Below, piece by piece: positions 33,355 through 52,094 of a stretch of DNA of 64,000 nt. How positions within the stretch are numbered: the stretch's first letter is position 1; each line of letters opens with the position of its first letter. Source of the stretch: Obrimoposthia wandeli (taxonomy: Eukaryota); the NCBI GenBank assembly GCA_977020255.1, contig CDROCS010000998.1:1-64000 (forward strand), given 5' to 3'. The position numbers and the translations under genes are program-made. The notes beneath the pieces were generated by a model that made no database searches, was not told where the DNA came from, and saw nothing but the letters and a program-made list of their open reading frames with translations.

Positions 33355-33392
33355 CGAGGGTTAAACGTTTTTAATTCGCAGTTAAACGCTGT

Positions 33393-34325
33393 TTAACGGG
33401 TAATAAACTGGTCGGCATTCGAGATAATGCGTAGTGGAATACTGTAGGTTTGGGTGCCGTCTTGCTCGCCATAGCTCGGGCGACCAAGTTGCACCCGTGG
33501 GCTTTGCCAAACCACCTGATTACCGATTGAGCCATTAGAGAACACCAGTTCGTGCTCTTCACCGGCTTGCGCCAACGCAAACACATCTAACTCTGTCAGC
33601 TTCGGCGCTTCAATCACCATGGTGGCGGTCGGCTGGTAATCGGTGATCATCACCTCTTCATGACCGACATATTCCTGATACGGCACTTGGTTAGCCTGAT
33701 CATATTCAAGGGAAATGAGCTTGGCGGCAGTGCCATCGATGGTGAAACTGGAATGTTGCACCCCTATTTTTAGTGGTGTAAGCCAGGTCGAAAAATCGGG
33801 TACGGGATGTGCCTGCACCTCTGCCGGTACATGCAAGCCGGTAAAGGTAAACTTGATCCCACCGAAGGCTTTTGCCGCCGCGTTAAACGCCAAACTGCCC
33901 CGCGTGCCAACTACTTTATGTAAGGTGCCCGACTGGTAGTAATAGAGTGTCAGGCTACCTGTAGCATCATCATCGATGCTGTAAACGGTCTGGCTATTTT
34001 CAACATCTTCGGTGACCCGACGCAAACAAGCTGCCATTAAGTCACCCCACGGTGCAGCCTTGGCCGGATGTGCCGATGCGGCCAAATCTACCGTGAATTC
34101 AACCGAGACATACACCTCGGTCATGATTTCAGCTGACTGACCCAAAGTGCCATCGTCATATTCGAGTGCCTGAGATTCACCCGCGAGCGGTGTAATAGAA
34201 AACTCACGCCCCAGCACATGCTTCATTACCGCACCATTGGCAATGTTTTCAGCCGACAGCCCATCGACGCCATAGGTTGTTTCGGGCACAAAGCCGATGA
34301 TTTTTTTTCGTTCTTTACGAGCCAT
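33393..34325 (-). CDS. Major tail (tube) protein, siphovirus type
   Basis: 310 aa, E.TYG.D N-terminus, PWGDLMAAC; no sheath gene in the module. Confidence 0.8.
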   Translation of the reverse strand: MARKERKKIIGFVPETTYGVDGLSAENIANGAVMKHVLGREFSITPLAGESQALEYDDGTLGQSAEIMTEVYVSVEFTVDLAASAHPAKAAPWGDLMAACLRRVTEDVENSQTVYSIDDDATGSLTLYYYQSGTLHKVVGTRGSLAFNAAAKAFGGIKFTFTGLHVPAEVQAHPVPDFSTWLTPLKIGVQHSSFTIDGTAAKLISLEYDQANQVPYQEYVGHEEVMITDYQPTATMVIEAPKLTELDVFALAQAGEEHELVFSNGSIGNQVVWQSPRVQLGRPSYGEQDGTQTYSIPLRIISNADQFITR

Positions 34326-34758
34326 AACTGTTTTGGTCCTCGGTATATTCCGTTACAAATTGATCGAGCCATGTCGCCCGTCCGCTCTCTACGGCCAGCA
34401 GCCGACCACTACCCAGCCAGTACGGCTCAAACTCATCATCCCCTGACCAGCCAAACAGCCGTTTTTTCAGTTCATCGCGCAGCGGTTTCCAGTTGAGTGG
34501 CTTACTGTTACTGCTGGCATCAACAATCACCACGCCCACGGTTACCGTGACGGTTTGCAGGTAGGCTCCGCTGCCACGCACATCAGGCTGCGGAGAATCA
34601 CCCACTTGAAACACATACAGCGATGGGGTTCTTACTGTTTTGCTGCGCTTCAAATCCAGCTGCGTCAACGAATCAAGTTCATGTACGTCAATCCAGGGCG
34701 GCTTGCCTTTAACTGTCGATTTCAATCTATCTACTGTTAGCTTGATAAGATCGGCCAT
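34315..34758 (-). CDS. Tail terminator / Mu gp37-like protein
   Basis: 147 aa, position after gp36, RLFGWS motif. Confidence 0.65.
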   Translation of the reverse strand: MADLIKLTVDRLKSTVKGKPPWIDVHELDSLTQLDLKRSKTVRTPSLYVFQVGDSPQPDVRGSGAYLQTVTVTVGVVIVDASSNSKPLNWKPLRDELKKRLFGWSGDDEFEPYWLGSGRLLAVESGRATWLDQFVTEYTEDQNSYGS

Positions 34759-35192
34759 CAGATAAACCCTTTGGCACGACCGCGACCAAACACACTGCCC
34801 GCACTGGTAATGGTGGCGGTGTTGTTGCTCTCGGCTCTGGCATTGTTACTGTCTAAACCTAACTGCAATATGCCGCGCCCCACCTTTTCCAGATAACTGA
34901 TGCCATCTTTATAGCGCTTAGCTACTTGGTGTTCATCACCCAGCACATCATCATTCAGGTAGTAACGAGCCAAATCACAGGCCGTTCTTGTTAACACCCG
35001 AGGGACAATATGGAGTGGCAGACTATATCTGCCACCCAGATAGCCATCGATGGTGGCGCTGGCATCATCCATTGCTTGGTTCAACACGGTGTCGACAATG
35101 TCACCAGCGCTGCCATCGCGGTCAGTCAGTGCAATTAGCTCTTGTCCACCAAAGCGGGCTTTCATGTCATCTCGGGTGCAATACATCGCCAT
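34758..35192 (-). CDS. Mu gp36-like head-tail adaptor (DUF1320)
   Basis: MYCTRDDM..RFG..EL..LTD...A.IDGYL.GRY.LPL motif. Confidence 0.9.
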   Translation of the reverse strand: MAMYCTRDDMKARFGGQELIALTDRDGSAGDIVDTVLNQAMDDASATIDGYLGGRYSLPLHIVPRVLTRTACDLARYYLNDDVLGDEHQVAKRYKDGISYLEKVGRGILQLGLDSNNARAESNNTATITSAGSVFGRGRAKGFI

Positions 35193-35632
35193 TACTCCGC
35201 GTTATCAGCCTGCTCAGCAGCCAGTTTCTGGAATTCAGTCCACGCTTCATCACGCTCTTTTGCTGTCAGCGATATCCCTGCCAATTTCTCCAGCGCATTC
35301 ACTTGCGGCTTGTTACCACTTGTGAAGTGTTCTGAATTTTCTGGGTCGAGCTTTCCAATCGCATCAAGCAGGCTTAGCTCAGAAACATGGCCTAAACCAT
35401 CGTGTTCACTTCCTTGAACCACGTTCCCCGCCGTACCGTCTGCCGTATCTGCTTGGGCATACGACACTGCAAGGCGTGGATCTGCTTCAAGCATGGCCAG
35501 TTGCGAGCAGGTAACTGTACCCGCTTCCAGAATGTTTTCCCCGGTGTTAAACGCCATTCCCGCACGGCGGTAACCATCGTGCGCCACGCTTTTAATAACC
35601 AGTTTTTTATCGATAACAGTTTGTTGTGACAT
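35192..35632 (-). CDS. Mu gp35-like (HI1506-related) protein
   Basis: GYRRAGMAF...LEADPRLAV; C-terminal SGNKPQVNALE. Confidence 0.75.
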   Translation of the reverse strand: MSQQTVIDKKLVIKSVAHDGYRRAGMAFNTGENILEAGTVTCSQLAMLEADPRLAVSYAQADTADGTAGNVVQGSEHDGLGHVSELSLLDAIGKLDPENSEHFTSGNKPQVNALEKLAGISLTAKERDEAWTEFQKLAAEQADNAE

Positions 35633-35711
35633 AACATTGTGCTCTCCATATCAACGTTAAACAGGGCTTAAACAGCATTCGGCTAATGCCGTTTAAGTTA
35701 GTAAATTGGGA

Positions 35712-36620
35712 TTAAGCCAACCAAGGCACCACAACCAGCTCAACGGCTTTGTAGTTGGTGTTCGATTCACCCTGAGCCTTGTTTTCTGCTTCCAGCACTT
35801 TCTTGGCCGCGCTGCGATTGCTAGGGCCGCACACCAACACGCTAGACATGATCCCTAACGGGCGGCCTTCGTCTGACTTAAAGGCCATCATGGTTTCGAT
35901 TCCACTGTCGAAATTGGCATCGGTTAATGCAGCTTTAGATGCAAAGGCTTGCTGCCAGAACGCGAGCCCCCAGTTACCACGTCCATCAACGCCATAAAGA
36001 TATTCATCCGCCATGAAGACATGATCTGACTGGCCCGCATCTGTTTTTGCATTCAGGCGATAGTCTTTACGTTTCTGGTAAATGAACGGTTTTAAAGGTC
36101 GGCGGGTATCAAGCAGGAACCACGGGGCTCCCGCGCCTGCCTGCATGTTCGACACTGACTCTTCTTTACCAGTTTCAGGATTAACCACCGGATGGTCGGT
36201 ATCAAAGAAGTACTGACCGTCATAACACTTGGTGGTAAAGCCTGCGGCCATTAGGGCAAACAGCATTTCATCAGGATGTGATGCACTGGCGTAACCCATT
36301 TCTTGATACAGCGGCATAAACACACCGTAGGCATCGTCATCAATGGCTTCAGCAGGAATACCCACGGTTGATTCGTACTTTTTGTTCTTGAGCGTGTAAT
36401 CATGACTGGCCAGTTTTTTAACCTGACGATCACCTACCCATTCACGCAATCGGGGAAACTGACCTAACCAGGTGTACGCTTCCGCCGAGGTCGAAGACGG
36501 CACCATGGTGGCGAATTGCGGCCACAATGCGGTGTAACTACCGCTACCGGTGTTAAACGCAGTTTTAACCGCTGTATAAAGGGCGCTTAAATTATTTTGA
36601 TTAATATCCACTTTGTTCAC
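35712..36620 (-). CDS. Major capsid protein (Mu gpT family)
   Basis: Y.WLGQFP.LREWVGDR, CYDGQYFFDTDHPV, WQQAF motifs. Confidence 0.93.
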   Translation of the reverse strand: MNKVDINQNNLSALYTAVKTAFNTGSGSYTALWPQFATMVPSSTSAEAYTWLGQFPRLREWVGDRQVKKLASHDYTLKNKKYESTVGIPAEAIDDDAYGVFMPLYQEMGYASASHPDEMLFALMAAGFTTKCYDGQYFFDTDHPVVNPETGKEESVSNMQAGAGAPWFLLDTRRPLKPFIYQKRKDYRLNAKTDAGQSDHVFMADEYLYGVDGRGNWGLAFWQQAFASKAALTDANFDSGIETMMAFKSDEGRPLGIMSSVLVCGPSNRSAAKKVLEAENKAQGESNTNYKAVELVVVPWLA

Positions 36621-36657
36621 TCCAACACTGTTTATGTCTGTGCTATTTCACGCCCAG

Positions 36658-37044
36658 CTATTTGATTCCCAACCACACCCACACACCGTCACTCTCTACT
36701 TGGGTGATCACCCCAGCTTTAGGACGCGCATTGGTGTTACTGCTGATGGACAAGCTGCCGTCATCAACAAAGAAGGCATCTGAACCCACATCGGCATTAT
36801 CAATATCACCGCTGTTCAAAAACTTATGCTCACCAACATCGACACCAATACGGGTTTCACCATCAAAACCTGTGGTGTTGTCTACACCGAGGTTTGACAC
36901 ACCAGCACAGATGTCGGCAGGCGCGGCACTGGCAAAACCGATGGCTAGCCCTGCTGCCAACATCACCACCGCATTACCGCCAATGTACTGGCCCCCTTTA
37001 ACCGGATAATCTCGGCGGGTGCCCGTTCGTTTTGCTGTTCCCAT
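36658..37044 (-). CDS. Capsid decoration/cement protein
   Basis: 128 aa Gly-rich ORF between scaffold and capsid genes, ends GVWVWLG. Confidence 0.65.
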   Translation of the reverse strand: MGTAKRTGTRRDYPVKGGQYIGGNAVVMLAAGLAIGFASAAPADICAGVSNLGVDNTTGFDGETRIGVDVGEHKFLNSGDIDNADVGSDAFFVDDGSLSISSNTNARPKAGVITQVESDGVWVWLGIK

Positions 37045-37595
37045 TAGCTGTTTTCCTTTTTCGCTGCCAAGAATGCGGTTTTATCAAGATCACATGCCTT
37101 GAGCACTGCCAGCTCTTCAGCTGTTAGATCGTTATCGTTCTTGGTTTTATGGTGGGTTTGCTGGGTTGCCGTTTGTTGCGAAGTAAGAGCAGCAATGGCT
37201 GGGCGCTTTTCAAGCATTGCCGACAACGCAACAACGCCTTGTTGTTCACCAAACTGTTTTAAGTAGTCGGTTTCCGCTTCAACAATCTGGCCTTTGTCTT
37301 TCGCGGCTTTAATCACGGAATCAATACCTGTTGAATCTGTACCCGCTTTTAATACAGCCAGTTCACCGACCACGCCGTTATAGGCATCGATAGTGACAAA
37401 CTGAGTTAGATCGACAGCTTTGCCCTTATCTGCGGTTAATGCTGCCACCTGCGTTTTCAGATTATTGCTTTCGGTCGCCTTGGTTTGCAGGGCATCGAGG
37501 GCTGTTAATGCGGCCTGCCCTTGCTCTTGGGTTAAGGTGTCTTCTGTTGGGGTGATACCTAACTTACCGAGCAGTTTTTTCAGTAGTTCATTCAC
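37044..37595 (-). CDS. Internal-start scaffold protein (Mu gpZ analogue)
   Basis: In-frame GTG at 37595 preceded by GGAGG at 8-nt spacing. Confidence 0.7.
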   Translation of the reverse strand: MNELLKKLLGKLGITPTEDTLTQEQGQAALTALDALQTKATESNNLKTQVAALTADKGKAVDLTQFVTIDAYNGVVGELAVLKAGTDSTGIDSVIKAAKDKGQIVEAETDYLKQFGEQQGVVALSAMLEKRPAIAALTSQQTATQQTHHKTKNDNDLTAEELAVLKACDLDKTAFLAAKKENS

Positions 37596-38222
37596 ATTAC
37601 GATCCTCCGTTTGACCGTATAGATTAATTTCGGTGCCGATACCGGCGGTGTGGGAATTCAATCTGAGATTGAAGTCAGCCGTCTTTTCTGCGTACAGGGC
37701 TGCCAGTGATTCCATGCCGACGACACCGGGATCATTGGTAATAGCCGCCATGCGCAGCAGTAACGGGTGACCGTGTTTGTTGTAGGGGAAAACAGCAGAA
37801 AGAAAGGCGTACTCTTTAGCGTCAATATGGCCTTTAGCGGTATTGGTCCAATCGGGGCGAATATATAAACCCTGCCCTTCACGCCACTCAATATCGACAC
37901 CACTATTCAGCCAGCCGGATGCAATGGCCTTTTGACCATTTTCGGCGGTATTGAGGGTTTGATGTTCGTAATCAATCAGGACTTTGGGGGCTGTGGCTTT
38001 AGTGGCCGCAATCATCTGCGCGGCGATATCGGCATTAAGGTGCCAATAGCCATCGGCGGTATCGTGGGGGCGACCATCACGGGCTTTGAATTTGCCCGCA
38101 GGTAGCAGCTGATGCCAGCCGTCTTCTGACTGGTTTAAGTCTGCTACCAGTACAGCAAGGTTACCGGTAAGGTTGGCAGCTAAAACTGCCTGCGCGATGT
38201 GAGTGCGTTTTGATGTTTTCAT
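37044..38222 (-). CDS. Mu gpI-like prohead protease with C-terminal scaffold
   Basis: QLLPAGKF.ARDGRP, IDYEHQTL, Y.FLSAVF, AAITNDPG motifs. Confidence 0.92.
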   Translation of the reverse strand: MKTSKRTHIAQAVLAANLTGNLAVLVADLNQSEDGWHQLLPAGKFKARDGRPHDTADGYWHLNADIAAQMIAATKATAPKVLIDYEHQTLNTAENGQKAIASGWLNSGVDIEWREGQGLYIRPDWTNTAKGHIDAKEYAFLSAVFPYNKHGHPLLLRMAAITNDPGVVGMESLAALYAEKTADFNLRLNSHTAGIGTEINLYGQTEDRNVNELLKKLLGKLGITPTEDTLTQEQGQAALTALDALQTKATESNNLKTQVAALTADKGKAVDLTQFVTIDAYNGVVGELAVLKAGTDSTGIDSVIKAAKDKGQIVEAETDYLKQFGEQQGVVALSAMLEKRPAIAALTSQQTATQQTHHKTKNDNDLTAEELAVLKACDLDKTAFLAAKKENS

Positions 38223-38280
38223 AGCGCCAGTGTGGCGCTATTTGGCTAGGAGGCGTGGTGGAAGAAGTTCGGGAATGTGG
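38222..38280 (-). promoter_or_regulatory. Putative late promoter/leader of the head operon
   Basis: TCCCGAACTTCTTCCA (38259-38274) shared 14/16 with the lysis leader; TAGCGCCA-N3-TGGCGCTA hairpin overlapping the ATG. Confidence 0.55.
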
Positions 38281-38539
38281 ATTGGCTTGAGATTGAACAG
38301 AAGTGAGTGAGTTAGTTTTTTTTGCTCTATTTTTAGGTTTCGGATAAGGTTTCATATTGCAAATGTTGAATTTGCGCGAGTAAACGCTATAAATATGACC
38401 TAATTCACGAGGCTACTACAGTACAGTACTACGAAGCGTTGGGGCTGAAACCTGATCTTGGTATTTGACCTTATTGAGTAAAGACAGCAAAAGAATTTAA
38501 TTGTTATACTCTATAATGGCTCCAGAATAATGGTGATTT

Positions 38540-39298
38540 ATGATGGTAGATGGAAACAACGAAAGATTATTAGAGCCTGAAATCAAATCATTGCTACTTA
38601 ACCATTTGGTTATGAAAGGGATATTAACATCTGCCGATACGGTTTTTAACGAATTTACAGTTGATAACGCTTCTCGTAGGGTTGATCTAGCTATCTCTAA
38701 AGGGAAAGAGTTGTGGGCATTTGAAATTAAAAGTGAAGCCGATACTCTGACTAGACTAAAAGGACAAGTAAACATCTATTCAAAGTACTTTGACAAAGTA
38801 TTTGTAGTGGTTGCAAAAAAGCATGTTGACTCAGCATTGTCCATAATTCCTACTTCAGTAGCTCTTTGGGAAATAAAACAAAACAGAATAGTAGTGAAGC
38901 AAAAAGGGAGAAAAAAACTAATTAAAAACTCTGAAAGTTTCATTGATATGATGAGTGTCTCTGATTTAACTAAAATCGTGAGTAAAAGTGGCCTAAAATC
39001 CCCATCTAAAAGAAGACAAGATTTAGTCAGTTCTTTAGCTAAAGTAAATAGTAATTTATTGAGAGAAGCTGCTTTTGAAGCCATCACGCAAAAATATAGG
39101 CTATCTTCGAAGATGTTCTTTGATCAAGTCATGAATAGGGATATTACTCCTAATGATATTTCTTTATTAAGTCGATTCAAATTACAGGACTTACGCTCAC
39201 TTATCCCCACAGACGATATTGAGGATATTATATGTACCCTTAATGCTATAGGCATTGATGGCGATAGGATACAGTGCAATGATTTAAGTTGCGTATAG
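38540..39298 (+). CDS. sce7726-family PD-(D/E)xK-like protein
   Basis: RRVDLAI...AFEIKSEADTLTRL..Q...Y..YFD.V.VV motif. Confidence 0.8.
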   Translation: MMVDGNNERLLEPEIKSLLLNHLVMKGILTSADTVFNEFTVDNASRRVDLAISKGKELWAFEIKSEADTLTRLKGQVNIYSKYFDKVFVVVAKKHVDSALSIIPTSVALWEIKQNRIVVKQKGRKKLIKNSESFIDMMSVSDLTKIVSKSGLKSPSKRRQDLVSSLAKVNSNLLREAAFEAITQKYRLSSKMFFDQVMNRDITPNDISLLSRFKLQDLRSLIPTDDIEDIICTLNAIGIDGDRIQCNDLSCV

Positions 39299-39312
39299 AC
39301 ATATAGACACAA

Positions 39313-40446
39313 CTAATCTACCCAATCTTCATCTGTATCGAGGTCTTCCAGAATATCACTGTAATGAAGCTGCTGGTACAGGTGTAAGTTGATTCTTACA
39401 GCTGTTGCCCGATTTGGAGACGTAATGCCATATTCGTCACCTTCTGAAGTCCTCTCTATCATTTGAACTCCCCAAAGTTGTAGACCTTCAATCCAGTAAT
39501 CGCTAATGATCATTTCAGATGCAGCTTCTTGGTAAAGTTCTTCTTTTTCTCCTAGAGCAATGTTTTTGGGGTCATCAAATTCCTTTCTTATAAAACGCCA
39601 ATCGTTTTTTAGTGAATAATCAATGCGAGGAGGCGGAGTTGACCCACCACCACTAAGTTTAGCCGCTCTAGCACCACCGCGATCTGAATATAGCATCGCT
39701 ATATCCGATGAACAGTTTTTAAATGTACTATTGAAAAGCAGTCTTTCATATATCGGAATTTCTCCACGATATGAACCTGCAAAACTAAAAGGAAAAGATG
39801 CAGCGGATATTGAAAAAACTGCTTGAGGAAAGAGTCGGTGCAGACTTTCGACTAGTTTCGCATGTTTTTCACCTTCTAGAGTATCAATTTTTCCCACATC
39901 TTCATGATCAAATATAAATAGAAGCTGATTTATGCTTTTACCTAGTAATGATCTGGCTACGGTATTAAATAGCACTGCCGAACTTTTCTTCATCATAAAT
40001 CGAACGACTAGCCCACGATTTAGAGAGACTAAAGACACAATTTGCTTATCCAATTCACTTAAATTATCAAGCTGTAATGTTGGTATAGCGTTGGGAGTGC
40101 TTTGAATATAATTAAACCAGTTTTCGTACCCATTATTTGGGTTAAGAAGGTTATGAATTTCTTCATGAACGGCTCTTGGATATTCTTGTGTTGCAATATA
40201 CTTTTTGTTTTTAAATAGAAAGTCACTATCAATATCAGCAATAAAATGTCTTTCGCCAATTGATTTCTGAATTCTTTCTATAGAGCTTTTCAGGTAACGA
40301 GCTGTTGTCCACCCTTTTAATGGGAACATCGGCAGTATCTTATCTTTGTCTTTTTCTGGCAACTGCTCGATTGCTGTCATTTCCGAAGGATTTAACGCCA
40401 GTATCGGGGCATATTGAAAAAGTAATGCTTGCTCTGATATAAACAA
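39313..40446 (-). CDS. Beta-family protein (related to satellite P4 beta / sce7725)
   Basis: N-terminal YAPIL...E..AI..L, PRIDY, C-terminal W.....S.......RINLHL; probable TTG start at 40446 after a GAGGT RBS. Confidence 0.7.
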   Translation of the reverse strand: MFISEQALLFQYAPILALNPSEMTAIEQLPEKDKDKILPMFPLKGWTTARYLKSSIERIQKSIGERHFIADIDSDFLFKNKKYIATQEYPRAVHEEIHNLLNPNNGYENWFNYIQSTPNAIPTLQLDNLSELDKQIVSLVSLNRGLVVRFMMKKSSAVLFNTVARSLLGKSINQLLFIFDHEDVGKIDTLEGEKHAKLVESLHRLFPQAVFSISAASFPFSFAGSYRGEIPIYERLLFNSTFKNCSSDIAMLYSDRGGARAAKLSGGGSTPPPRIDYSLKNDWRFIRKEFDDPKNIALGEKEELYQEAASEMIISDYWIEGLQLWGVQMIERTSEGDEYGITSPNRATAVRINLHLYQQLHYSDILEDLDTDEDWVD

Positions 40447-40447
40447 A

Positions 40448-40948
40448 TTAACCTCTATAATTATCAAGTTGATATTTCAAAGAAGTTAGAGACACGTCAA
40501 AATCTAGTGCAAGCTGTTCATACAAAGCTTCACCTTTGAGTGTATTTTCACTATCTCTTTTATGTTTAGCTAATAAGTGCATAGGCATTAGAATATCAGC
40601 AGCTAAGTTATTTGCTTCGGTTTCTATAGTTGAGGGAAGCTTGGAACGAAATAGTGCATCATCAATAATGCCATCACCAATATATTTCCTATGTAGAAGA
40701 AAATGGGCTATCTCATGAGCTAAAGTAAATCGTTGGCGGTGTTTAACATCATGTCTATTAACACGTATTAATACGACTCCATTCGACTCTTTTATTTCAC
40801 CCGAAATATTACCTTGTAATGTTGATGATTTAACTATCAACCCAAAAGCCTTGGCTAAAGTGCCAACCTTGATTGGGAAGCTATTTTGATGTGCTTTTAT
40901 GATTGAAATTTGTTCATGGGATAGTTTACTCCACTCTCTTGAAATCAT
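40448..40948 (-). CDS. ImmA/IrrE-family Zn metallopeptidase (no HTH)
   Basis: RFTLAHEIAHFLLH (HExxH) and ETEANNLAADILMP. Confidence 0.9.
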   Translation of the reverse strand: MISREWSKLSHEQISIIKAHQNSFPIKVGTLAKAFGLIVKSSTLQGNISGEIKESNGVVLIRVNRHDVKHRQRFTLAHEIAHFLLHRKYIGDGIIDDALFRSKLPSTIETEANNLAADILMPMHLLAKHKRDSENTLKGEALYEQLALDFDVSLTSLKYQLDNYRG

Positions 40949-41721
40949 TTTATATCCCCATCTTTCTGTACGCTTTCGTCCGTATCACCAAGCTGATCCC
41001 AGTCGATATCTTCATCTAATTCGGCCCAGTCTATGCTCTTGCTTCCATTTTTATTTCTAAGAATAAAGGCATCAACAACATCCTCTAAATGCTTAGTGAA
41101 TTTACCTTCGTCAATAAGCTCTTCCAATTTATTTTTTACTACACTATCAATTTTCTGTTCTGTCGTTTCTCCTGCGACTTTTTCTGCAATAGTTTCAGCA
41201 GTAGATTCGGTCGTTTGCTTTATGTTTCGATAGCCCCAAAAAGAAAGTACGGCTATAGCAATACCGAGAGCGGTTATGATAACTGATACGGAAGTAATCG
41301 ATATCGCTGCAAAATCAGCGTAGGAAAAGTAGTTTTGATGTTGATATAAGTTATCAACTCTTTGTTTTAGTTTGGGTAAGTTATTAGGTAACTCTGTACG
41401 ATTTTGAGTAACTATTGAACTTTTTAATATTGCTTCATTAATTGCACTAGAGCTTTTTAATATTTCTTTATGAAGCTTTTGGTAATCGTCTCTGATTTCA
41501 TTGTCGATTATCTCGTTGGAAGCTTGAGATAACTGGACAGTGGCATTGGCTAGAGTATCAAGAGATTGTGATATAGAAAGCAAAGATTCGAGAACCGCCT
41601 TGTTATGTTCTTTATCAATATTGGTTGTTGTAGGAGGGGATTCGATAGCATTAAGTTCTGCTGCAACGAGAGGAAATGAACATACCCAAATGATAATGGC
41701 TTTAATAACAAAGTGCATCAC
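40945..41721 (-). CDS. Hypothetical membrane protein (signal peptide, coiled coil, one TM, acidic tail)
   Basis: Hydrophobic N-terminus; TM segment AAISITSVSVIITALGIAIAVLSFWGY; ATGA overlap with the peptidase gene. Confidence 0.7.
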   Translation of the reverse strand: MMHFVIKAIIIWVCSFPLVAAELNAIESPPTTTNIDKEHNKAVLESLLSISQSLDTLANATVQLSQASNEIIDNEIRDDYQKLHKEILKSSSAINEAILKSSIVTQNRTELPNNLPKLKQRVDNLYQHQNYFSYADFAAISITSVSVIITALGIAIAVLSFWGYRNIKQTTESTAETIAEKVAGETTEQKIDSVVKNKLEELIDEGKFTKHLEDVVDAFILRNKNGSKSIDWAELDEDIDWDQLGDTDESVQKDGDIK

Positions 41722-41868
41722 TACTAGTTCCAGACTCTAAATATCAAGATTTGGACCAATAATACTACAACTATCGCTACGGTTATCATATCACTCTTTG
41801 ATTTTGATGAAATTTATTTTTTATTGATGAGGAGCTTGAAGACTAATACATAATAATAAAACTGATTA

Positions 41869-42030
41869 AATCGCTTGGTTTGAGATGTAAGGGCTTTAGT
41901 CAGCGACTAGTACAGCAAGGTTACAGGTAAGATTGGCAGCTAAAACTGCCTGAGTGACTTGAGTGCGTTTTGATGTTTTCATAGCGCCAGTGTGGCGCTA
42001 TTTGGCTAGGGGGCGTTCGGGGATGTGGAG
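41869..42030 (-). repeat. Chimeric duplicate: gene I leader + first 28 codons fused to gene G stop + 3' flank
   Basis: 41896-42030 matches 38136-38280; 41869-41904 matches 46214-46249; mini-ORF MKTSKRTQVTQAVLAANLTCNLAVLVAD* at 41896-41982. Confidence 0.92.
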
Positions 42031-42318
42031 GATTTGGTTCGGAACTGCTTGGTGTGAGTCAGCAATGATCTCATTGACTCATTTTTGGACAAAATCGTGT
42101 CAGTGATATTGCTAATTTAGCTATTAATGAATTAGTTCAAGTATAGAAAGGACTCCCTTATATGAAGCCCGACTGCAGCTTATCCGTACATAACACTCAA
42201 GGTAGCAACTACATCAAAGTAATTAAAGCCTCAGGTAACGTCTTAATTTTGTGATGATATCAACTTCAGTTGTTGATTCTGCTGATATCATATTGCAACG
42301 ACTAGGCTGATATAAAAG

Positions 42319-43182
42319 ATGAGTATGGCAATAGACCCAGTATATAAGTTCATGAGTGGGGAGTGCTTCCATCTCAAAGGCTTACGAGAAAACACTGTGT
42401 GGTTTTCTAGCGTTAAAGATTTAAATGATCCCTATGAAGGGCGTGTGAGTCTAAAACATAATGATGTATCACTAATTGACAGAAAACTAGCCCTAACTCA
42501 TGTTTTTGACGAGGAAAATAAAGACCTAAAGAAATCTCGTAAGGAAGTTGAATCATTCCTAAAAAGAGTAGGTATGGATAAATTCAATGAGCATGTAGAA
42601 AAAAACACGAAGAGGCACTTTGAGGATTTTTTAACGTTTCACCATGAGCAACGTCACGTGCTCTCGTTATCTCGAGCGAGTGAGCTATTAAACGAAAACC
42701 CTATACCAAAGCCTCTTAGTCTAATGATGATGTGGGGGCATTATGCCAACGGCTTTAGAGGTATGTGTGTTGAGTATGACTATCACGAGCTAGTCAGAAG
42801 TATCAATGTATTAAACAATATCGCAGTATCTGCTAAGACGGTTGATTATGTTGAAGGAACTCTCCCAATAATAGAAACTAAAACTATCCTTGATGACATA
42901 GTTTATAAAAACGGGAACACTTCGAGAGAAATACTCAGAGCTTACTGTACCAAGCACAAGGCTTGGGATTATGAAAATGAAGTCAGGGTTATTAGTCCGC
43001 TTCACGGAGTTAACAGACATAGTGAAAAGAGTATTAACAGAGTCTTTGTTTCAGACCAAAACCCTGCATTAATAAAAAAGGTCAAGAGCATCCTTAAAAC
43101 CAAAAAACAAAAACCTGAGTTACTGAAAGTTTCATTACATAAGAAAGAGTTTGGCTTCTACTTTAAGACCATTGAATACTAA
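42319..43182 (+). CDS. DUF2971-family protein
   Basis: WFSS...LNDPYEG, MWGHYA....GMCVEYD, K...WDYENEVR motifs. Confidence 0.8.
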   Translation: MSMAIDPVYKFMSGECFHLKGLRENTVWFSSVKDLNDPYEGRVSLKHNDVSLIDRKLALTHVFDEENKDLKKSRKEVESFLKRVGMDKFNEHVEKNTKRHFEDFLTFHHEQRHVLSLSRASELLNENPIPKPLSLMMMWGHYANGFRGMCVEYDYHELVRSINVLNNIAVSAKTVDYVEGTLPIIETKTILDDIVYKNGNTSREILRAYCTKHKAWDYENEVRVISPLHGVNRHSEKSINRVFVSDQNPALIKKVKSILKTKKQKPELLKVSLHKKEFGFYFKTIEY

Positions 43183-43514
43183 AGGAAGAACTGATTTTTC
43201 TCGAGTCTGTAGATACGTTACAGGCATGAAAAAAATTAATCAAATGATGATTTAGTGAAATGGGGCTTAAACAGCCGCGAACTTGATGTTTTGGGGCACT
43301 TCCATGTCAGCAGGGATCGCGCTGAAACGTATCTGGACAAAAACAATTTGGGTACATTGATCTTACCGATTTCAATCAGATTAGAGAAAGTACCTTGAAT
43401 CCTAAAACATTCGTTGGCTGCGTTCTAATTTGATGAGAGATACAAAGAAATGACTAACGATAAACCAAAATCTTGTGATTAAGGTTTGAAAAGCTGACAA
43501 CTATTTAAGTGGAA

Positions 43515-43766
43515 TTAAACTAATAAACTTAGGTAGAAGCCTAAAGAGCTTTCGCCCTCTAAACTTAACCCTGCACCTACACCAGTAGCTACGACACCTG
43601 CACAAACCGCACTCACCCCATTTAATAATGAAGCCAATAGTACTCTTACGTTTTGCATCACTCTTTCCATAAAGCCACCTTTTATTCCCATTGTCGTTAC
43701 GTTCAATAAACTAGCGAAGTAGTTACATACAATAATTATCAATGTGAGAGCGGTTATTATGTCCAC
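43515..43766 (-). CDS. Small hydrophobic hypothetical protein
   Basis: ORF track only; start uncertain. Confidence 0.3.
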   Translation of the reverse strand: MDIITALTLIIIVCNYFASLLNVTTMGIKGGFMERVMQNVRVLLASLLNGVSAVCAGVVATGVGAGLSLEGESSLGFYLSLLV

Positions 43767-43767
43767 A

Positions 43768-43796
43768 GTGCCGAGCTGAAGAATCGAACTCCAGAC
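43768..43796 (-). other. tRNA 3'-half relic (att-like)
   Basis: GTC-TGGAG-TTCGATT-CTTCA-GCTCGGC-AC: T stem/loop, acceptor 3' strand and discriminator; no 5' half. Confidence 0.6.
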
Positions 43797-43855
43797 TTCT
43801 GCCTAAATTTACTTACACCAAAACAATAACTTAAAAATCAATCATTCGCAATAGT

Positions 43856-43979
43856 AGTTAACGCCTTGTAAGGGGGAGCAACACAATACCGAGGTTGTAC
43901 AACCACCTTAAACACTTAGCCCGCCGCATAATAACAACGCCACGCGTTGTGAATCACTTTTGGACAAAATGTGTCATGG
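43856..43979 (+). repeat. Degenerate Vibrionaceae integron attC site
   Basis: 124-bp imperfect palindrome TAACGCCTTG.AAGGGG.GAGCAAC...ACCACCTTAAACACT...CGCATA...GCCACGCGTTG.GAATCAC...GTCATG, close to Vibrio superintegron repeats as I know them; R' GTT changed to GTC. Confidence 0.7.
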
Positions 43980-44024
43980 ATTTTGCTAATTTATAAATAA
44001 CTACAGGTATGGCAAATCGTGTAG

Positions 44025-44053
44025 TTGGTGCTTACAACCTTACATTGTAGAAT
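44025..44053 (+). promoter_or_regulatory. Putative sigma70 promoter for the ATPase-HNH pair
   Basis: TTGGTG-17 nt-TAGAAT. Confidence 0.4.
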
Positions 44054-44071
44054 ATCAATCAGGCTCATAAT

Positions 44072-45313
44072 TTGGTTAAAGGCATGATCGAATCAATAGA
44101 CTTCAAATTGATTGGCACTAGCGATAAGCGTGTTAGCACGACGTTAAGTGGCAAAAACCTGATAATCACAGGTGAAAACGGCTGCGGCAAAACTCGCTTC
44201 CTGCGTCAATTGCACCAATACCTACAACAATTCTTCAATAGGCAAATACAGCCTAGGGAAGTAATTCAACAACAACTAGAGAGTACTCGACGGGCGTTAG
44301 AACAGGCTAGCGTATCTCATAGAAACTATAATTCGTACGCTCAAAATATTAAGTCGTATGAACAGCAGCTAGAGCGTCTATCTAACGAAAATATGGTGTT
44401 CAGCGGTCCTGATGCTCTGTTCGAATTGGTTAACAACAAGCAATTCATCCTTCGATTTTTCGAAGCAAATCGACTTGCCAGCAACATTGCTAGTAACGGT
44501 CAGATTGAAAGCATATCTAATATCAAAAATACTGCTCAGTCCCAAAACTTCGAACAAGATTCAAGTAATCAGTTCGAAAAATATCTAGTCAGTTATTACA
44601 ACTACGGTTCGCATGTAATTGCTCGTGAAAATAATCCTGAGAAAGAGCAACAAATCAACGCATGGTTCGAGAAAGTACAAAATGACTTACGTGACCTGTT
44701 TGAAGATCATGAATTAATCCTTCAATACAACCCAGAAGAACAAGCCTTCTACATTCACCAAGAAGGCAAAGATCCATATCGTTTTAGCACATTGTCTTCT
44801 GGCTATAGTTCGATTCTAAGCATTTATGCTGATTTGCTTATGACAGTTGAGTTGCGTGACATACCAGCGGAAGACATCACTGGTTTCGTTTTAATTGATG
44901 AAATTGATGCGCATCTGCATGTATCAATTCAAAGAAAAATCTTCTCGTTCTTTGACAAGGCTTTCCCAAAGATTCAATTCATCATAACTACGCATTCACC
45001 TTTCGTAGTTCAATCAGTGAATAATTCGATAATCTATGACCTGAGTAAACTTGAACCACTAAAAGATCTTTCTATGTACTCATATGAGTCCATCCTAAAA
45101 GGGTTACTAGGTGTTGAAAGCACATCCGATATATTAAACGCTCAACTGGATGAAATGGCTGAAATCATTAACCAAGATCCAGTAAACACAGAGCGATTAA
45201 AGAAATTAATCGACTCAATAGAGCCGCATGAAGAGCAGTTAAACGCTCGTTCACGTGCATTCCTTTTACTTGGCAAGAATGCTCTTTTAGATTCAACCGA
45301 TGGTGAGGGGTAA
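44072..45313 (+). CDS. ABC/AAA ATPase, PtuA (Septu)-like
   Basis: GENGCGKT (Walker A), LSSGY signature, VLIDEIDAHLH (Walker B/D-loop), TTHSPF. Confidence 0.85.
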   Translation: MVKGMIESIDFKLIGTSDKRVSTTLSGKNLIITGENGCGKTRFLRQLHQYLQQFFNRQIQPREVIQQQLESTRRALEQASVSHRNYNSYAQNIKSYEQQLERLSNENMVFSGPDALFELVNNKQFILRFFEANRLASNIASNGQIESISNIKNTAQSQNFEQDSSNQFEKYLVSYYNYGSHVIARENNPEKEQQINAWFEKVQNDLRDLFEDHELILQYNPEEQAFYIHQEGKDPYRFSTLSSGYSSILSIYADLLMTVELRDIPAEDITGFVLIDEIDAHLHVSIQRKIFSFFDKAFPKIQFIITTHSPFVVQSVNNSIIYDLSKLEPLKDLSMYSYESILKGLLGVESTSDILNAQLDEMAEIINQDPVNTERLKKLIDSIEPHEEQLNARSRAFLLLGKNALLDSTDGEG

Positions 45314-45317
45314 TTAA

Positions 45318-45983
45318 ATGTTCAATGTTGTTCGAACATACCCTGAACCCCCAAGCATCGCTAAGAACGAGTACAACAAAGAGGACGTGCTCAAGAAACT
45401 CAGACCGATGTTCTTCGATAAGTGCTACCTATGTGAACGAGATGATATTCAAGATGTAGAAGTAGAGCACTTCATCCCACACAAAAAAGATACAGTACTG
45501 AAATACAATTGGGAGAACCTGTATTACTCATGTTCTCGATGCAATAGCATCAAAAGTAGTACACACATTAATCTATTAGATTGTGCTAATCGTTTCTACG
45601 ATGTTAGTGCAATGATTAAGTGCTTGATGCCTTCTACGCCTGATGGAGACGTTCAAGTTTCGGCAACTAGTGCAAACCCATGCACTCAAACAGAAAATAC
45701 TGTGACGTTGCTTGAGGCTTGCTACAACTTAGATAACACGGCTCTTCGAGGTATCAGTCGTGAAACTCTGATGGAGCAAACGTGGGATCATTACACGGAA
45801 TTACTTAATGCGAGGCAGGTACTTCGTAATAAGCGAACAGGACGCACAGATAAACAAAAGGCAGAAGAAACATTTGAAGCAATGCTTGATGTAAAATTTC
45901 CATTTTCTATCTTTTGGCGGTATTACTACCTGAACGATTCTTTTCTTATACGGAATTACCCTCAATTAAGAGTTGGGTTTTAA
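45318..45983 (+). CDS. HNH endonuclease, PtuB (Septu)-like
   Basis: CYLCE...EVEHFIPH...WENLYYSCSRCNSIK; 4 nt after the ATPase stop. Confidence 0.85.
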   Translation: MFNVVRTYPEPPSIAKNEYNKEDVLKKLRPMFFDKCYLCERDDIQDVEVEHFIPHKKDTVLKYNWENLYYSCSRCNSIKSSTHINLLDCANRFYDVSAMIKCLMPSTPDGDVQVSATSANPCTQTENTVTLLEACYNLDNTALRGISRETLMEQTWDHYTELLNARQVLRNKRTGRTDKQKAEETFEAMLDVKFPFSIFWRYYYLNDSFLIRNYPQLRVGF

Positions 45984-45985
45984 AC

Positions 45986-46012
45986 AAAGGAGTCAATATT
46001 GGCTCCTTTTTT
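45986..46012 (+). terminator. Intrinsic terminator after HNH gene
   Basis: AAAGGAGTC-AATATT-GGCTCCTTTTTT. Confidence 0.7.
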
Positions 46013-46240
46013 ATCCATTCGGGTAACTTTTAGTAAGGCTAGTACACACTAACAGAATGTAAATGAGTAAAAGCACTAGATAGCTTCGAGGCAGGAACGT
46101 GTCAGACAGGATTCACTGACACACCCCTAACCCCACATTGGTACACGCCGTTTAAACCTTTCCCAAAACGTTTAACCCTTTCCCGCCCACACGGTTGCAC
46201 CAGAAATTAATTCAATCGCTTGGTTTGAGATATAGGGGCT

Positions 46241-46699
46241 TTAGTCTGCGGTAAGAAAGTTACCCATGATCTGATAAATTTTATCTGTATCTGCATCTGA
46301 AACACCTAACCATGGCCTTGCGGGTATGGCGGCGAGGTGCGGTAACATATCTTCTTTGCCACCGTAGTGATGGATTGCGCCGTATTCTAGCGGGGTGCCG
46401 AAGCTGAGCCCTTGACCGTCATTCCAGTAGTTGAGACTTTGGCGCAGGTGGTTGTTTAGTACCAGAATGAGATCGCTGTCGGCGGGCTTGCTGCGCTGGT
46501 AGTCTGGACTGAGAGGTTGCCATGACTCCCCTTCTGGCGACTGTTGCAACCGCCAACGTTGTTGATGGACGGTTAACAGGTAGTCGCCGATTTGCTGATA
46601 CAGCGGCTGGAGGCTTTCTGTTTTTTTTATTATGGCGTTCAGTTTGCGCCGAGGCGACTGCATGGCTGGCAAGGTGATGGCAAACGTTGAATTGCTCAT
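46241..46699 (-). CDS. Mu gpG-like virion morphogenesis protein
   Basis: QQSPEGESWQPLS, YGAIHHYGG, IPARPWLGVS motifs. Confidence 0.92.
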   Translation of the reverse strand: MSNSTFAITLPAMQSPRRKLNAIIKKTESLQPLYQQIGDYLLTVHQQRWRLQQSPEGESWQPLSPDYQRSKPADSDLILVLNNHLRQSLNYWNDGQGLSFGTPLEYGAIHHYGGKEDMLPHLAAIPARPWLGVSDADTDKIYQIMGNFLTAD

Positions 46700-48027
46700 A
46701 CTTTGTGGCTCTTGTTTGGTGGGGTGGATGCATCGTTACTGTTTGGGTTTTGACCTGATTTGAGTTGGCCTAATATGACCTCCCCTTCTTTTGCGACGGG
46801 AATGTTGGTTTTTTGATGCAGCCAACTTTGCGGTATTCGCATCCCAAGCCCGACTAAGCCAGGCAAAGCAGTCGATAACATTTGGATGTCTTCGGCTTCG
46901 GTGAGATCAAATTCAAAGCGGGGAATACGGTGGCGATTGCGATAGCTTTTGCCATTTAAGGCATACAGCGGGAACACTAAATCTCGGGTTAAGGTGGCGG
47001 CGATACGCTTAAGATCGAAATCTCGGATTTCTTCGCGCACTTCGTTATGCACGTTACCTAGTGCATTGGTGCTGGTTTTGCCGTCGGCTTGACTGGTGAG
47101 GGTGCCACCTAGAATGGCTTTTGACTGGGATTTTTCACACCAGTTGACCATTGCCATGAAGGGATCGCTGGCACCATCGGCGGCATTCTGAAAATCGATA
47201 TCCATGCCTTTGGGGATAATGCCACCCGCATTATGACCAATCGACATGACAGCCCGTAGTAAAGTGGATTTCTCGCGTTCGGTCGCCCCTTCTGGGTATT
47301 TTCCTAACCGAATGGGTAAGCCGTAAATTTCTAAGAATTCAGCTAAATCACGAATACTGTAGTTTTTGAATAAGAATGGCCATGCCAGCACCCGCACCAG
47401 ACCACGGCGGCTTAGATAACCTGACTTGGCTTTGGCGGTGTGGGATATCCAGCCAAACGGGTTCAGCTCGGCTCCTTCATGGCTGCCATCACGTAGGCGC
47501 AGCTGGTTGCGGTTATCTGGATGGGTTTGAAACCACGATGGATCACGGTGGTCGTAGCCGGTGACGCTGTGCATTCCTTCGATTATTTCCCATTTCAGTT
47601 CGAGATTTGAAAAGGTTTTAAGGGTGGCATCGGCCATGTCAAACAAGGCATCTTCTAACCACGTTGCATCTTCGAGTAGCTCTTGCAGCATGTCTGCATC
47701 GCGCTGTTCTTCTGCTGTGGCATTGCGCGGCGGGCGGATGTTCCAATCGATATTAAGCAGGGCCATTTTGCGTTTTGCCAGCTCTGACTGAATATGGGCG
47801 TCTTTTTCTTCCATGTCTTCGGCTAGCTCGCACTGGGCGATTAAATCGCCGTCTTCGGCGCGTTTCATGATGCCTGCCAGTTTCGCTGGCGTAAGCCCTG
47901 ATGAAGGATGCCCGGCAAAGTGGCGTTTAAGCTCGCTGAGTTTGGCATCGCTGTCGGTTTGCTGCTCGTCTAGATCGGCCGTCTCTATTTGACGGCCCCA
48001 TAAATCTACAATTGGTGATGTTGCCAT
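46696..48027 (-). CDS. Portal protein (Mu gp29/DUF935)
   Basis: HPSSGLTPAKL, MEEKDAHI.SEL.KRK, FLEIYGLP.RLGKY, SKAILGGTLTS; 443 aa from ATG 48027. Confidence 0.92.
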   Translation of the reverse strand: MATSPIVDLWGRQIETADLDEQQTDSDAKLSELKRHFAGHPSSGLTPAKLAGIMKRAEDGDLIAQCELAEDMEEKDAHIQSELAKRKMALLNIDWNIRPPRNATAEEQRDADMLQELLEDATWLEDALFDMADATLKTFSNLELKWEIIEGMHSVTGYDHRDPSWFQTHPDNRNQLRLRDGSHEGAELNPFGWISHTAKAKSGYLSRRGLVRVLAWPFLFKNYSIRDLAEFLEIYGLPIRLGKYPEGATEREKSTLLRAVMSIGHNAGGIIPKGMDIDFQNAADGASDPFMAMVNWCEKSQSKAILGGTLTSQADGKTSTNALGNVHNEVREEIRDFDLKRIAATLTRDLVFPLYALNGKSYRNRHRIPRFEFDLTEAEDIQMLSTALPGLVGLGMRIPQSWLHQKTNIPVAKEGEVILGQLKSGQNPNSNDASTPPNKSHKV

Positions 48028-48053
48028 GTTCTTAATCCTTGAATATCGGCCTT

Positions 48054-49634
48054 CTAATAACAACCCTGATCGAAGGCGTGCCCTTGTTCATGCAACAAAT
48101 CTGCATACAGATCATCGTCTTCGGTCAGTTCGCCTTTGGCGGGTAGTGGTGTAAATTCAATCGCGGCCCCGTCCATCCAGCTGGCACGAATAGCCATCGC
48201 CAAGCCCACTGCAAAGTCACCGTGACGCTGTTTGCCGTCTTGGCCTTTGCTTTTGCCTTTGTCGATTTTGGGCACGCCGTTGATCACCTGAATGTGGCTG
48301 AGGTCGTCTTTGATATCTTCATGTCGGGGTAAATCGAGATTCAAATCTTCAAATTCGGCTTTAAGCTTTGGCATCCATTCGCGATACCACGGGTCGTTGA
48401 GCGAAACTTGATCGACCATTTCTGTGCCGTATTTAAGTGCGGCAGATTCTGCCAGATAGCCACCGTTACCTGTGGCATCGAAGGCCATTCCGCGTTTACG
48501 GGGCAGCGCTTCCAATAAGAAATGTAAGATTTGTCGCTGACCTTCATAGGTCATGTTGCGCAGCTCGACCACGAACGGGACATATTTGCTGAGGTTGGGA
48601 CGAATCCCTAATGGTACGAAGATGGACAAATCCCCTTTGCGGGCGAAATCTTCTCCGAACGAGTGCGAGTGACTGGTATCGAGTTTATCCAACTCTGGTT
48701 TTAAGACACGTTTACACCAGTCATCAACATGCGCTTTACGCTGACCGTCACTCCATTCCATAAAGCCTTTGGGGGCTTCGATGGTCAAAATATTAGGGCC
48801 GTGCTTCATCGCGGAATCAATCAATACAGAGGGAATATACTGACCACTGGATGCTTTGGGCACGCAGTAATACTCTTCTAGGGCATCATCTTCGGTGGCG
48901 GTATCGTTAAGCAGGTTGGCTTTCCATTCGTCTTCTTTTTGTTGCGACCACTCAATTTTTTGGATCTGGCAAATACGCTGATAAAGCCCTTCGGCACAGG
49001 CATCATCAAGGGTGATGGTGTGAACGCTATAGCGTTTTTTTCCTGCCCGTGAATCGTTAATCAGTGAGTTAAACAGGTTACTCACGCCATTGTGGGTACT
49101 GATTAAACGCACCTTTGCGCCCCACATGGTCAGTGCAAGTGCCGCTTTTAGTACTTCCGCTAGACGATCATGAAACGCGGCTTCATCGATGATAACGGTG
49201 CCTTGCATGCCCCGCAGGTTAGATGGGTTGGAGCTGAGTGCCTGAACTTTAAAGCCAGAATCGAAGTAGACGACAAAGGTTAAAATGTCTTTGTCTTCAT
49301 TGGTGAGCACTTCTTCTTGTACTTCACTGGCAACTTTATTAAACGCCTTGGCCCACATGGCCACCGCATCAATGAACTCTCGCGCCATCTCTTTATTAGA
49401 ACCAACATAAAACACGTTGCTGCCACCTTCCCCTTTGGCGGTGCCAGCGGTTAGTGATGAATCGGCAGCTTCGGCAAAGGTTAAGCCAGTACGGCGGGAT
49501 TTCTCGGCAATCTTTAGAACCGACTTATCTTCCATCCAGCGTTTCTGATAACCCAGCAACAATTCATTAGGGTCGAACGCATGAATAACAGCTTCAGTAA
49601 CATGGTTCAGCTCAGGTCGAAATACTTCGGTCAT
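48054..49634 (-). CDS. Terminase large subunit (Mu gp28-like)
   Basis: EKSRRTGLT (Walker A), VIIDEAAFH (Walker B), GEDFARKGDLS, HGDFAVG. Confidence 0.93.
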   Translation of the reverse strand: MTEVFRPELNHVTEAVIHAFDPNELLLGYQKRWMEDKSVLKIAEKSRRTGLTFAEAADSSLTAGTAKGEGGSNVFYVGSNKEMAREFIDAVAMWAKAFNKVASEVQEEVLTNEDKDILTFVVYFDSGFKVQALSSNPSNLRGMQGTVIIDEAAFHDRLAEVLKAALALTMWGAKVRLISTHNGVSNLFNSLINDSRAGKKRYSVHTITLDDACAEGLYQRICQIQKIEWSQQKEDEWKANLLNDTATEDDALEEYYCVPKASSGQYIPSVLIDSAMKHGPNILTIEAPKGFMEWSDGQRKAHVDDWCKRVLKPELDKLDTSHSHSFGEDFARKGDLSIFVPLGIRPNLSKYVPFVVELRNMTYEGQRQILHFLLEALPRKRGMAFDATGNGGYLAESAALKYGTEMVDQVSLNDPWYREWMPKLKAEFEDLNLDLPRHEDIKDDLSHIQVINGVPKIDKGKSKGQDGKQRHGDFAVGLAMAIRASWMDGAAIEFTPLPAKGELTEDDDLYADLLHEQGHAFDQGCY

Positions 49635-50215
49635 TAGACTATCCCCAGTATTTCTTTTTTGATGCTGGATACTGTTTCGGCGGTCATTCCGGCTTTTTTG
49701 GCGACGGTTTCCGCCACCTTGGCCGCTTCATCTGCAAAGGCTTTGCGAATTTCTTTTTCGCGCTTATGGCTAGACATTGCGGCACTTTCAAGACGCTGCG
49801 CGGCGAGCATGGCATCTTTAATCATACCGATATCGACTTCGCCGTCCTTTTCATTGGCGTTCATCATGGCTTTGAACAGTTGGGTGCGGCCAATTTCAAG
49901 GATGAGTTTGGATACTTCGCCTGTCGGTTTATCACCAAGCTGGGCCACCAGCGCTTGCGAGACTTCACGTACATCACGCAGGTCTTTACCAATGGCTTCC
50001 ATACGAGATGAATAACGATTTAAACCGCTACGGCTCGGTTTCAAATCTTCGGGTAAGCCTTGTTGTTCAATGTATTCATTCACGGCCTGCAGCACTTCTT
50101 GCTGGCTGTTTTTTCCATCACGCAGCAAGCCATCGAGCAGTTGTTTTACATCATCAGGCAACAAGTCGATTTTGCTGCGACGGCCACGGGTGGGGTTATC
50201 TGTTTTATCCGTCAT
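49634..50215 (-). CDS. Mu gp27-like small terminase (DUF3486)
   Basis: GRRSKIDLLP, SRSGLNRY motifs. Confidence 0.88.
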   Translation of the reverse strand: MTDKTDNPTRGRRSKIDLLPDDVKQLLDGLLRDGKNSQQEVLQAVNEYIEQQGLPEDLKPSRSGLNRYSSRMEAIGKDLRDVREVSQALVAQLGDKPTGEVSKLILEIGRTQLFKAMMNANEKDGEVDIGMIKDAMLAAQRLESAAMSSHKREKEIRKAFADEAAKVAETVAKKAGMTAETVSSIKKEILGIV

Positions 50216-50216
50216 A

Positions 50217-50513
50217 TCATTCCCCTGGTCGTGGCTTCTTAATTCCCGATACCTTTGCACGACCACTTGCCACATCTTCACCTCGCCCCGTTAAGGTCGC
50301 GATGTAAGTGGAACCTAGCTTTTCAAGTGTGACTAACCCTAGTTCACTCAACCATTCCAGCTCTGCTCGTAGTGCGTCTCGGCTAATATCTAAGCCATAG
50401 CGGTCTAAGCCATCTTGAATAATTGATTCATTCAAATCATATCCAGGTACTTCAGACAGCAAACGCAAAATGACAAGCCGCTGGTGCTCGCGCAGAATTT
50501 GAGTAATCGCCAT
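50217..50513 (-). CDS. Mu gp26-like winged-helix protein
   Basis: RL.ILRLL.E.PGY..NES, L.WL.E.GLV, G.DVA.GRA.V.GI..P.P. Confidence 0.85.
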   Translation of the reverse strand: MAITQILREHQRLVILRLLSEVPGYDLNESIIQDGLDRYGLDISRDALRAELEWLSELGLVTLEKLGSTYIATLTGRGEDVASGRAKVSGIKKPRPGE

Positions 50514-51038: not shown

Positions 51039-51076
51039 GCTCTATTCCTTGTGTCGCTACGCCTTAAATAGCCAGC

Positions 51077-52091: not shown

Positions 52092-52094
52092 TAG

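Follow-up and report, generated by a model that had tools for sequence, protein, structure and literature searches.

The question raised by this locus is how two blocks of cargo came to stand in tandem between genes G and I of a Mu-like Photobacterium prophage, and whether the short joint between them belongs to a route that is used repeatedly. It was addressed in the window, i.e. the whole 64,000-nucleotide stretch of DNA analysed (C998:1-64000), which is part of a bacterial contig inside a 1.35-Gb mixed assembly (G000).

The prophage is encoded on the minus strand and extends from 22835 to C998:64733 (41,899 bp; window part 22835..64000). Its markers are those of the Mu-like class: a DDE transposase, a MuB-like ATPase, TG...CA ends, and a portal-G-I-T gene order of the Mu type. 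Genes for terminase, capsid, and tail are also encoded. Both ends carry the identical 5-bp target duplication ATACC and lie inside one interrupted small ORF, which is zinc-ribbon-like. Gene I, the Mu-like protease/scaffold gene (37044..38222, minus strand; PF10123, E 8e-86), is intact; its 392-aa product shares 96% identity with a protein of Photobacterium sanguinicancri and 88% with one of P. minamisatsumaniensis. Gene G, the tail completion/neck gene (46241..46699, minus strand; PF05069, TIGR01635), directly follows a shortened portal gene, and gene F (minor head protein), normally located between portal and G, is absent. A defective tail was considered and rejected, the last tail gene being the same in relatives. 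At 52308-54838 and 55651-56694 there are, in addition, more low-GC cargo between the lysis genes and mor, with a HAD hydrolase that has a PADLOC match and a Pua-like metallophosphoesterase, and a 347-aa ORF without assignment.

The order on the minus strand is gene G, cassette A, hybrid, cassette B, gene I. This layout, proposed earlier by a sequence-only reading, was recovered by self-BLAST. Namely, a decayed copy of the gene I leader and codons 1-28 (41892..42016, minus strand) matches 38132-38256 at 113 of 125 positions (E 2e-45), while a copy of gene G's final 9 nt with approximately 38-40 nt of its 3' flank (41859..41905, minus strand) matches 46204-46250 at 41 of 47 (E 3e-11). They meet in a crossover patch (41892..41905, minus strand), where 11 of 14 bases are equal in the alignment of gene I codons 27-30 with the gene G end. 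The hybrid ORF starts with an ATG at 41982, comprises 28 codons (MKTSKRTQVTQAVLAANLTCNLAVLVAD), and is closed by a TAA at 41898-41896, which is the stop codon of gene G. Three non-synonymous and two synonymous changes are private to these codons, consistent with decay. The distal, 'A-type' gene I leader (42017..42087, minus strand) is 81% identical, over 210 bp including the hybrid, to a remnant on contig C4085 of the same assembly. Only two further repeats were revealed by self-BLAST of the whole window. The Rfam search of 38000-47000 gave one sub-threshold match only, and a sigma-70 scan at the hybrid gave nothing above shuffles. An inverted repeat with 9-bp arms over the gene I start codon (38221-38241) has a counterpart in the hybrid (41981-42001); it is kept in relatives, often with a different arm sequence, and could be a translational or promoter element.

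A joint of this kind might arise if the prophages of two strains were merged during assembly, and the source assembly is indeed mixed, with at least two related strains present. However, the copies differ by 10-13% from both neighbours, as expected from the earlier claim that they had diverged from both parents, and the junction was recovered in a separate assembly, run X18 (Logan contigs, perhaps from the source sample). One X18 contig, over 41607-41989, crosses the junction with 0 differences, and another spans 41960-47011. The long contigs of this run have a depth of 7.3-8.3 across both cassettes and both flanks, with no joints listed; this flat depth gives no sign of prophage induction in X18. 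Since the junction is spanned with 0 differences and the depth is flat, an assembly chimera, the very outcome that the sequence-only reading had named as fatal to it, is excluded with near certainty, and the scar structure is genuine.

Both blocks carry predicted defence genes: Septu and DUF2971 in cassette A, beta-cII in cassette B. Module 1 of cassette A (44072..45983, plus strand) is Septu-like, with a PtuA ATPase gene and an adjacent PtuB HNH nuclease gene (PADLOC E 5e-143 and 2e-86), the arrangement by which a Septu system is recognised; it is 83% identical in G344. The middle part (43515..43967, minus strand; genome matches) holds a small cassette-like ORF and a repeat at about 43859-43967, a putative integron attC-like element. 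Module 2 (42077..43343, plus strand; family matches) consists of a DUF2971 (PDC-S31-like) gene preceded by a 45-bp motif of its own. This module is 96% identical in G059 and 89% in G036, where the flanks differ, and runs X1, X7, and X15 show coverage of it alone, with other flanks. A query with cassette A matched 344 of 401 Vibrionaceae genomes, most of the listed matches falling on the attC-like repeat. Judged by these matches, cassette A is a mosaic of modules that occur separately elsewhere, so that to speak of 'two cassettes' is a simplification. The 45-bp motif, which contains a GCTAAATTAGC palindrome, stands at the head of both the DUF2971 (42075-42119) and the Septu (43950-43993) modules, with a weaker copy at 43306-43342. 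Further copies precede gene I in L008 and occur at other sites in Vibrionaceae, in one case (L169) next to an ISNCY transposase gene. The motif may be a transposon end or a promoter/operator.

Cassette B (38540..41721, genes on both strands) comprises a 258-aa ORF, an M78 peptidase gene, beta (minus strand), and cII/sce7726 (plus strand; NF033832). The same four-gene order occurs in G034. The cassette resembles gop-beta-cII, described as anti-phage in the available part of PMC9122126; beta (PADLOC E 2e-39) and cII (E 2e-49) were matched and gop was not; the 258-aa ORF had no PADLOC match. Most G-I cargo ORFs in the window match defence families, and two are without assignment. The GC content is 0.385 in cassette A and 0.357 in cassette B versus 0.50 in the late genes. 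No A-like trace was detected in B, nor a B-like one in A, by self-BLAST.

The sequence-only reading placed the switch from gene I to gene G exactly at a shared GCAGACT. The present G and I genes do have this heptamer in common, within the 11/14 patch, but the hybrid itself reads GTC GCT GAC TAA (GCTGACT), as does gene I in the sister remnant on C4085 and in other relatives. Between the sister-remnant allele and gene G, the exact overlap is GACT. For 204,820 I/G breakpoint pairs taken as a null, an exact match of at least 7 bases had a frequency of 6e-4, one of at least 4 bases 0.019, and an 11/14 patch 5e-5. The breakpoint is located inside a short shared match, and this match is beyond chance.

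The hybrid is probably best explained as a decayed I-start/G-end junction, left when two related Mu-like genomes, each with a single cassette, recombined out of register at the 14-bp near-match; the event likely happened once. One phage (G-A-I) would have supplied the part that ends with codon 28 of gene I, and the other (G-B-I) all that follows from its G stop. Integration of a small circle of the second phage through the I leader would give an equal product. No integrase would take part in the joining and none was found among the scanned prophage ORFs, which agrees with the integrase-free gain claimed before; nor does the locus display the recombinase and the reused site of a site-specific or integron-like array. 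Afterwards, the scar would have decayed neutrally, with the second gyrase-site-like flank truncated.

The two-genome origin draws support from the halves of the hybrid, which do not simply duplicate the resident genes, and from an A-type leader that stands on an unbroken gene I start in C4085. The hybrid differs from the resident gene I at 12 positions and from the sister remnant at 11, and it has ancestral alleles common to relatives. C4085 belongs to a sister strain (97% host identity) whose prophage relic occupies almost the same place in the host (236000-238700; L003, L004). This relic includes a right end, approximately 100 unbroken gene I codons, and the A-type leader, and is interrupted on the upstream side, where a group II intron has entered the 45-bp motif. 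By its sequence, it would be the nearest thing to a single-cassette parent.

Slippage at the same G/I near-match within a single genome would also yield this scar, provided that one copy of the resulting tandem duplication was later replaced, by in-register exchange or module by module. The microhomology suffices for such slippage and is still common to the resident G and I, cassette A is made of independently mobile modules, and the internal G copy of one relative, L022, is 96% identical to L022's own G. What counts against the two-phage origin is that the single-cassette parents for which the sequence-only reading proposed a search did not come to light: neither a G-A-I nor a G-B-I arrangement was present among 160 distinct G-I loci or 401 Vibrionaceae genomes. 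We nevertheless consider slippage within one genome unlikely, given the absence of A-like sequence in B and the reverse, and given hybrid alleles and a distal leader that fit the sister remnant and relatives, not the resident gene I.

In the 401 Vibrionaceae genomes, cassette B had no more than partial matches at 65-71%, and matches to cassette A modules elsewhere had no G or I within 1.5-kb flanks. The source assembly contained no second full copy of either cassette and no second G end; a related G-end contig is present in X18. The hybrid junction query found no match in phages or plasmids. The hybrid query matched 9 of 67 Photobacterium genomes, none of which has the same join, and the exact leader pattern had 0 matches in viral contigs. 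A scan with the single gene G protein added one weak locus.

The survey comprised 80 genome, 80 viral, and 51 metagenome loci with a gene I alignment, to which six stretches of genomes, a Vibrio phage, and the window were added. G and I were present in order in 187 loci, 160 of them distinct at 97%, and an interval of at least 450 bp was taken as cargo-bearing. This applied to 70 of the 160 distinct loci, the largest interval being that of the window (8.0 kb). The G-I interval is a cargo hotspot, in which the conserved genes G and I enclose variable cargo of low GC content, as the sequence-only reading had stated for anti-CRISPR genes; in JBD88a, AcrF3 occupies this interval. A PADLOC scan of the relatives' cargo revealed Dsr1, IetAS, Menshen with a methyltransferase, DRT5, and a kinase, and 8 of 16 scanned cargo proteins were without a match. 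One interval, in a Neptunomonas prophage (L071), contains a tandem array of 36-bp units.

Internal copies of the gene G coding end were found in four of the 70 cargo intervals (window, L009, L016, and L022); the decayed locus L203 has a fifth such copy but was left out of the 70 because its gene I is a stub. Two more intervals, L064 and L115, have an internal flank beginning near a G stop, and five others a displaced arm motif only; in all of these, cargo may have entered between gene G and the flank. Fragments of the gene I 5' part were present in two of the 70 intervals, those of the window and L016. The order in L016 is G, a 361-aa ORF, gene I codons ~9-35 joined to mid-G through the G end and flank, IetAS, and I. 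This second junction is short and degenerate (E 3e-6; alignment score 67 versus shuffled maxima of 30-42; nhmmer E 0.002). Its overlap is about GCTG, and its breakpoints lie elsewhere in both genes than those of the window. On the sequence comparison, I5'/G joining has occurred at least twice, and not at one site. The claim that stacking recurs is upheld to this extent, by L016 and by the duplicated G ends, while its extension to a repeatable route at this particular microhomology is not: the window's own junction is confined to the window (1/70), and a patch of at least 10/14 between G end and I start was seen in only 2 of 16 Vibrionaceae loci.

These counts also bear on the idea of a programmed, reversible device, in which the GCAGACT match would add cassettes and the 125-bp repeat would shed them. 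A 51-bp perfect run is left in that repeat, and 51 bp is long enough for RecA by the minimal lengths. The GCAGACTAA allele of the G end is found again in L168 and in the internal G copy of L016, and gene I relics in several genomes break near codons 28-44. The latter clustering was set aside as a sign of a specific site, since there are few cases, of which two go back to one event, and since erosion toward the cargo that was retained accounts for it. Besides the single occurrence of the window's junction and the different breakpoints in L016, the deleted copy of the promoter block speaks against such a device. So does the failure to find a stack of three with two such hybrids or a collapsed joint among the X18 contigs, although contigs hide rare variants and a low-level form could escape. 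Such a device therefore seems highly improbable to us.

Nor did the collapse proposed in the sequence-only reading, an easy RecA-dependent loss of cassette B with repair of gene I, find support. The scar has persisted long enough to accumulate 12 differences. No repair is needed, gene I being intact as it stands. The hybrid leader lacks about 11-12 bp of a conserved late-promoter block, including TTCC, a block present in all seven other aligned leaders and located where the late promoter is annotated in Mu (AF083977). With this block missing from the copied leader, collapse would probably repair nothing and would likely place the head operon behind a damaged promoter. The stack would have been kept for this reason and, likely, because both blocks protect the lysogen.

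Tandem or nested insertion of two related prophages offers another path to the same product, by an in-place deletion that runs from gene I of one prophage to gene G of the next. An older prophage did exist here: the relic of its right end lies at 22756-22793, 79 bp outside the present end, and L189 likewise has two right ends in tandem. The matching target duplications weaken the simple nested version, which would leave the ends of two different insertions, although the deletion could have occurred elsewhere, before a later transposition. We hold this path to be quite unlikely. It would gain from repeated landing beside the same rare motif, which would gather related genomes at one place.

A candidate motif of this type is an inverted pair of what we presume to be DnaA boxes (TTATCCAC-N7-GTGNRTAAC), located in host DNA just outside the tail-side prophage end. 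It was present at six of the seven ends first inspected, at a distance of ~80-132 bp. The window's motif (22631-22654) is 101 bp from the older end (22756) and 180 bp from the present end (22835). Among six prophages added later, three show the motif 87-127 bp from a clear end, two have the motif past the last tail gene with the end not recognised, and one has none. The prophages followed here are those of the window, L004, L294, L295, L296, L298, L300, L301, and L303. A search of 15 genomes gave 0 to 7 exact copies of the motif in each. Upstream of uvrB there are three insertions (the third recognised from sequence alone), and the E. coli uvrB promoter has DnaA sites according to the part of PMC6015884 available. 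Overall, the tail-side ends lie ~80-135 bp from the pair, which suggests target-directed transposition near inverted DnaA-box pairs. Motif-linked insertion is not without precedent, as the Pseudomonas phage Ab30 has hotspots at BIME repeats, with ~5% of insertions (PMC5977238, available part). If the lead holds, related phages would meet at one locus, and it may be more novel than the scar.

Returning to the out-of-register exchange between two phages, which we favour, the gene G side of the hybrid deserves attention. The 3' flank of gene G (46150..46240, minus strand; motif and Mu annotation) carries a phased TTAAAC...TTTAAAC arm (46150-46175). In Mu, the gyrase cut site is annotated 20 bp past the G stop (AF083977), and the strong gyrase site (SGS), which lies close to G and I, is most effective at the centre and requires its right arm (PMC10052514, available part). 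The pattern TTAAA-N10-18-TTTAAA follows the G stop of Mu and that of 52 of 142 loci, versus 0.08% of shuffles. The arm of the window is at +66 to +91 from the G stop, whereas the flank copy in the hybrid ends at about +38 to +40 and stops short of it. With the flank at ~46190 and the prophage centre at 43784, there is one full gyrase-site-like flank 2.4 kb off centre. Given its central position after G and its phased right arm, the flank is likely a homologue of the Mu strong gyrase site, and the presence of one full flank near the centre may explain why cargo builds up there. Gyrase breaks might drive the joins; the literature search for breaks driving joins of this kind returned nothing relevant.

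The loss of gene F is shared with other loci. The portal/G join (window position 46696) is identical in L016 though the host sites differ, so that an F-less lineage seems to have spread. Gene F is absent from 8 of 64 cargo-bearing loci and from 1 of the 79 that lack cargo (Fisher P 0.011, with lineages that are not independent); the loci listed with an F-less portal/G region are the window, L016, L008, L015, L022, L115, L118, and L130. Relics reduced to the end of G, the start of gene I (~14-44 codons), or both stand alone in host chromosomes in L168, L187, L189, L190, L203, and L205, most of them beside cargo; they suggest how a prophage hotspot may turn into a chromosomal defence island. All this could be combined into a built-in route in Vibrionaceae Mu-like phages, with targeting to DnaA-box pairs that would bring related phages to one site in a common orientation, central gyrase breaks, room made by the loss of F, additive joins, and decay to defence islands. 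We offer this synthesis tentatively and regard it as doubtful.

The literature search found no description of G/I stacking scars or of DnaA-box-directed Mu-like insertion, most subscription journals being outside its coverage. The hotspot preprint 10.1101/2024.10.15.618418 does not mention microhomology, tandem arrangement, or duplication, and PMC12482185, on Vibrio harveyi prophages, does not mention defense or hotspots. The mechanism of gene gain at phage accessory hotspots is left open in the available parts of PMC4378225 and PMC9122126, and the former states that flank analysis is still needed to infer it. Whichever mechanism applies, the Photobacterium/Vibrio Mu-like G-I interval is rich ground for mining defence genes, with Septu, beta-cII, Dsr1, IetAS, Menshen, DRT5, and unassigned ORFs.

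Compared with known systems, the locus most directly resembles the accessory region (RGP G) that D3112/MP22-like phages of Pseudomonas carry between gene G and their protease gene (PMC4378225, available part). The syntenic position, the low GC content, and the variable cargo are the same, but the window holds multi-kb cargo of predicted defence genes (PADLOC) in place of small Acr genes and keeps a G/I scar. With the gop-beta-cII-bearing phage hotspot it shares a small variable locus between two conserved genes, diverse defence functions, and homologues of beta and cII. It differs in being part of a transposable phage, in a hotspot that lies centrally by a gyrase-site-like flank and not beside cos, in the missing gop match, and in the added M78 peptidase gene. 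The G flank resembles the Mu SGS in its apparent position just past the G stop near the genome centre and in its phased TTAAA/TTTAAA tracts, except that the hybrid's copy ends before the arm. The closest general concept is that of morons and mosaic junctions formed by illegitimate or relaxed homologous recombination, as cited in the available part of PMC4378225. The scar is ordinary phage mosaicism, a moron-like gain at an accessory hotspot: autonomous low-GC modules were acquired without an integrase, through short-homology junctions. Unlike in morons, the cassette was added instead of swapped, and pieces of both flanking core genes can still be read. The locus has kept a readable junction, from which it follows that cargo can be added, and not just swapped, by short-homology joining of the flanking core genes, an outcome that recurs in L016.
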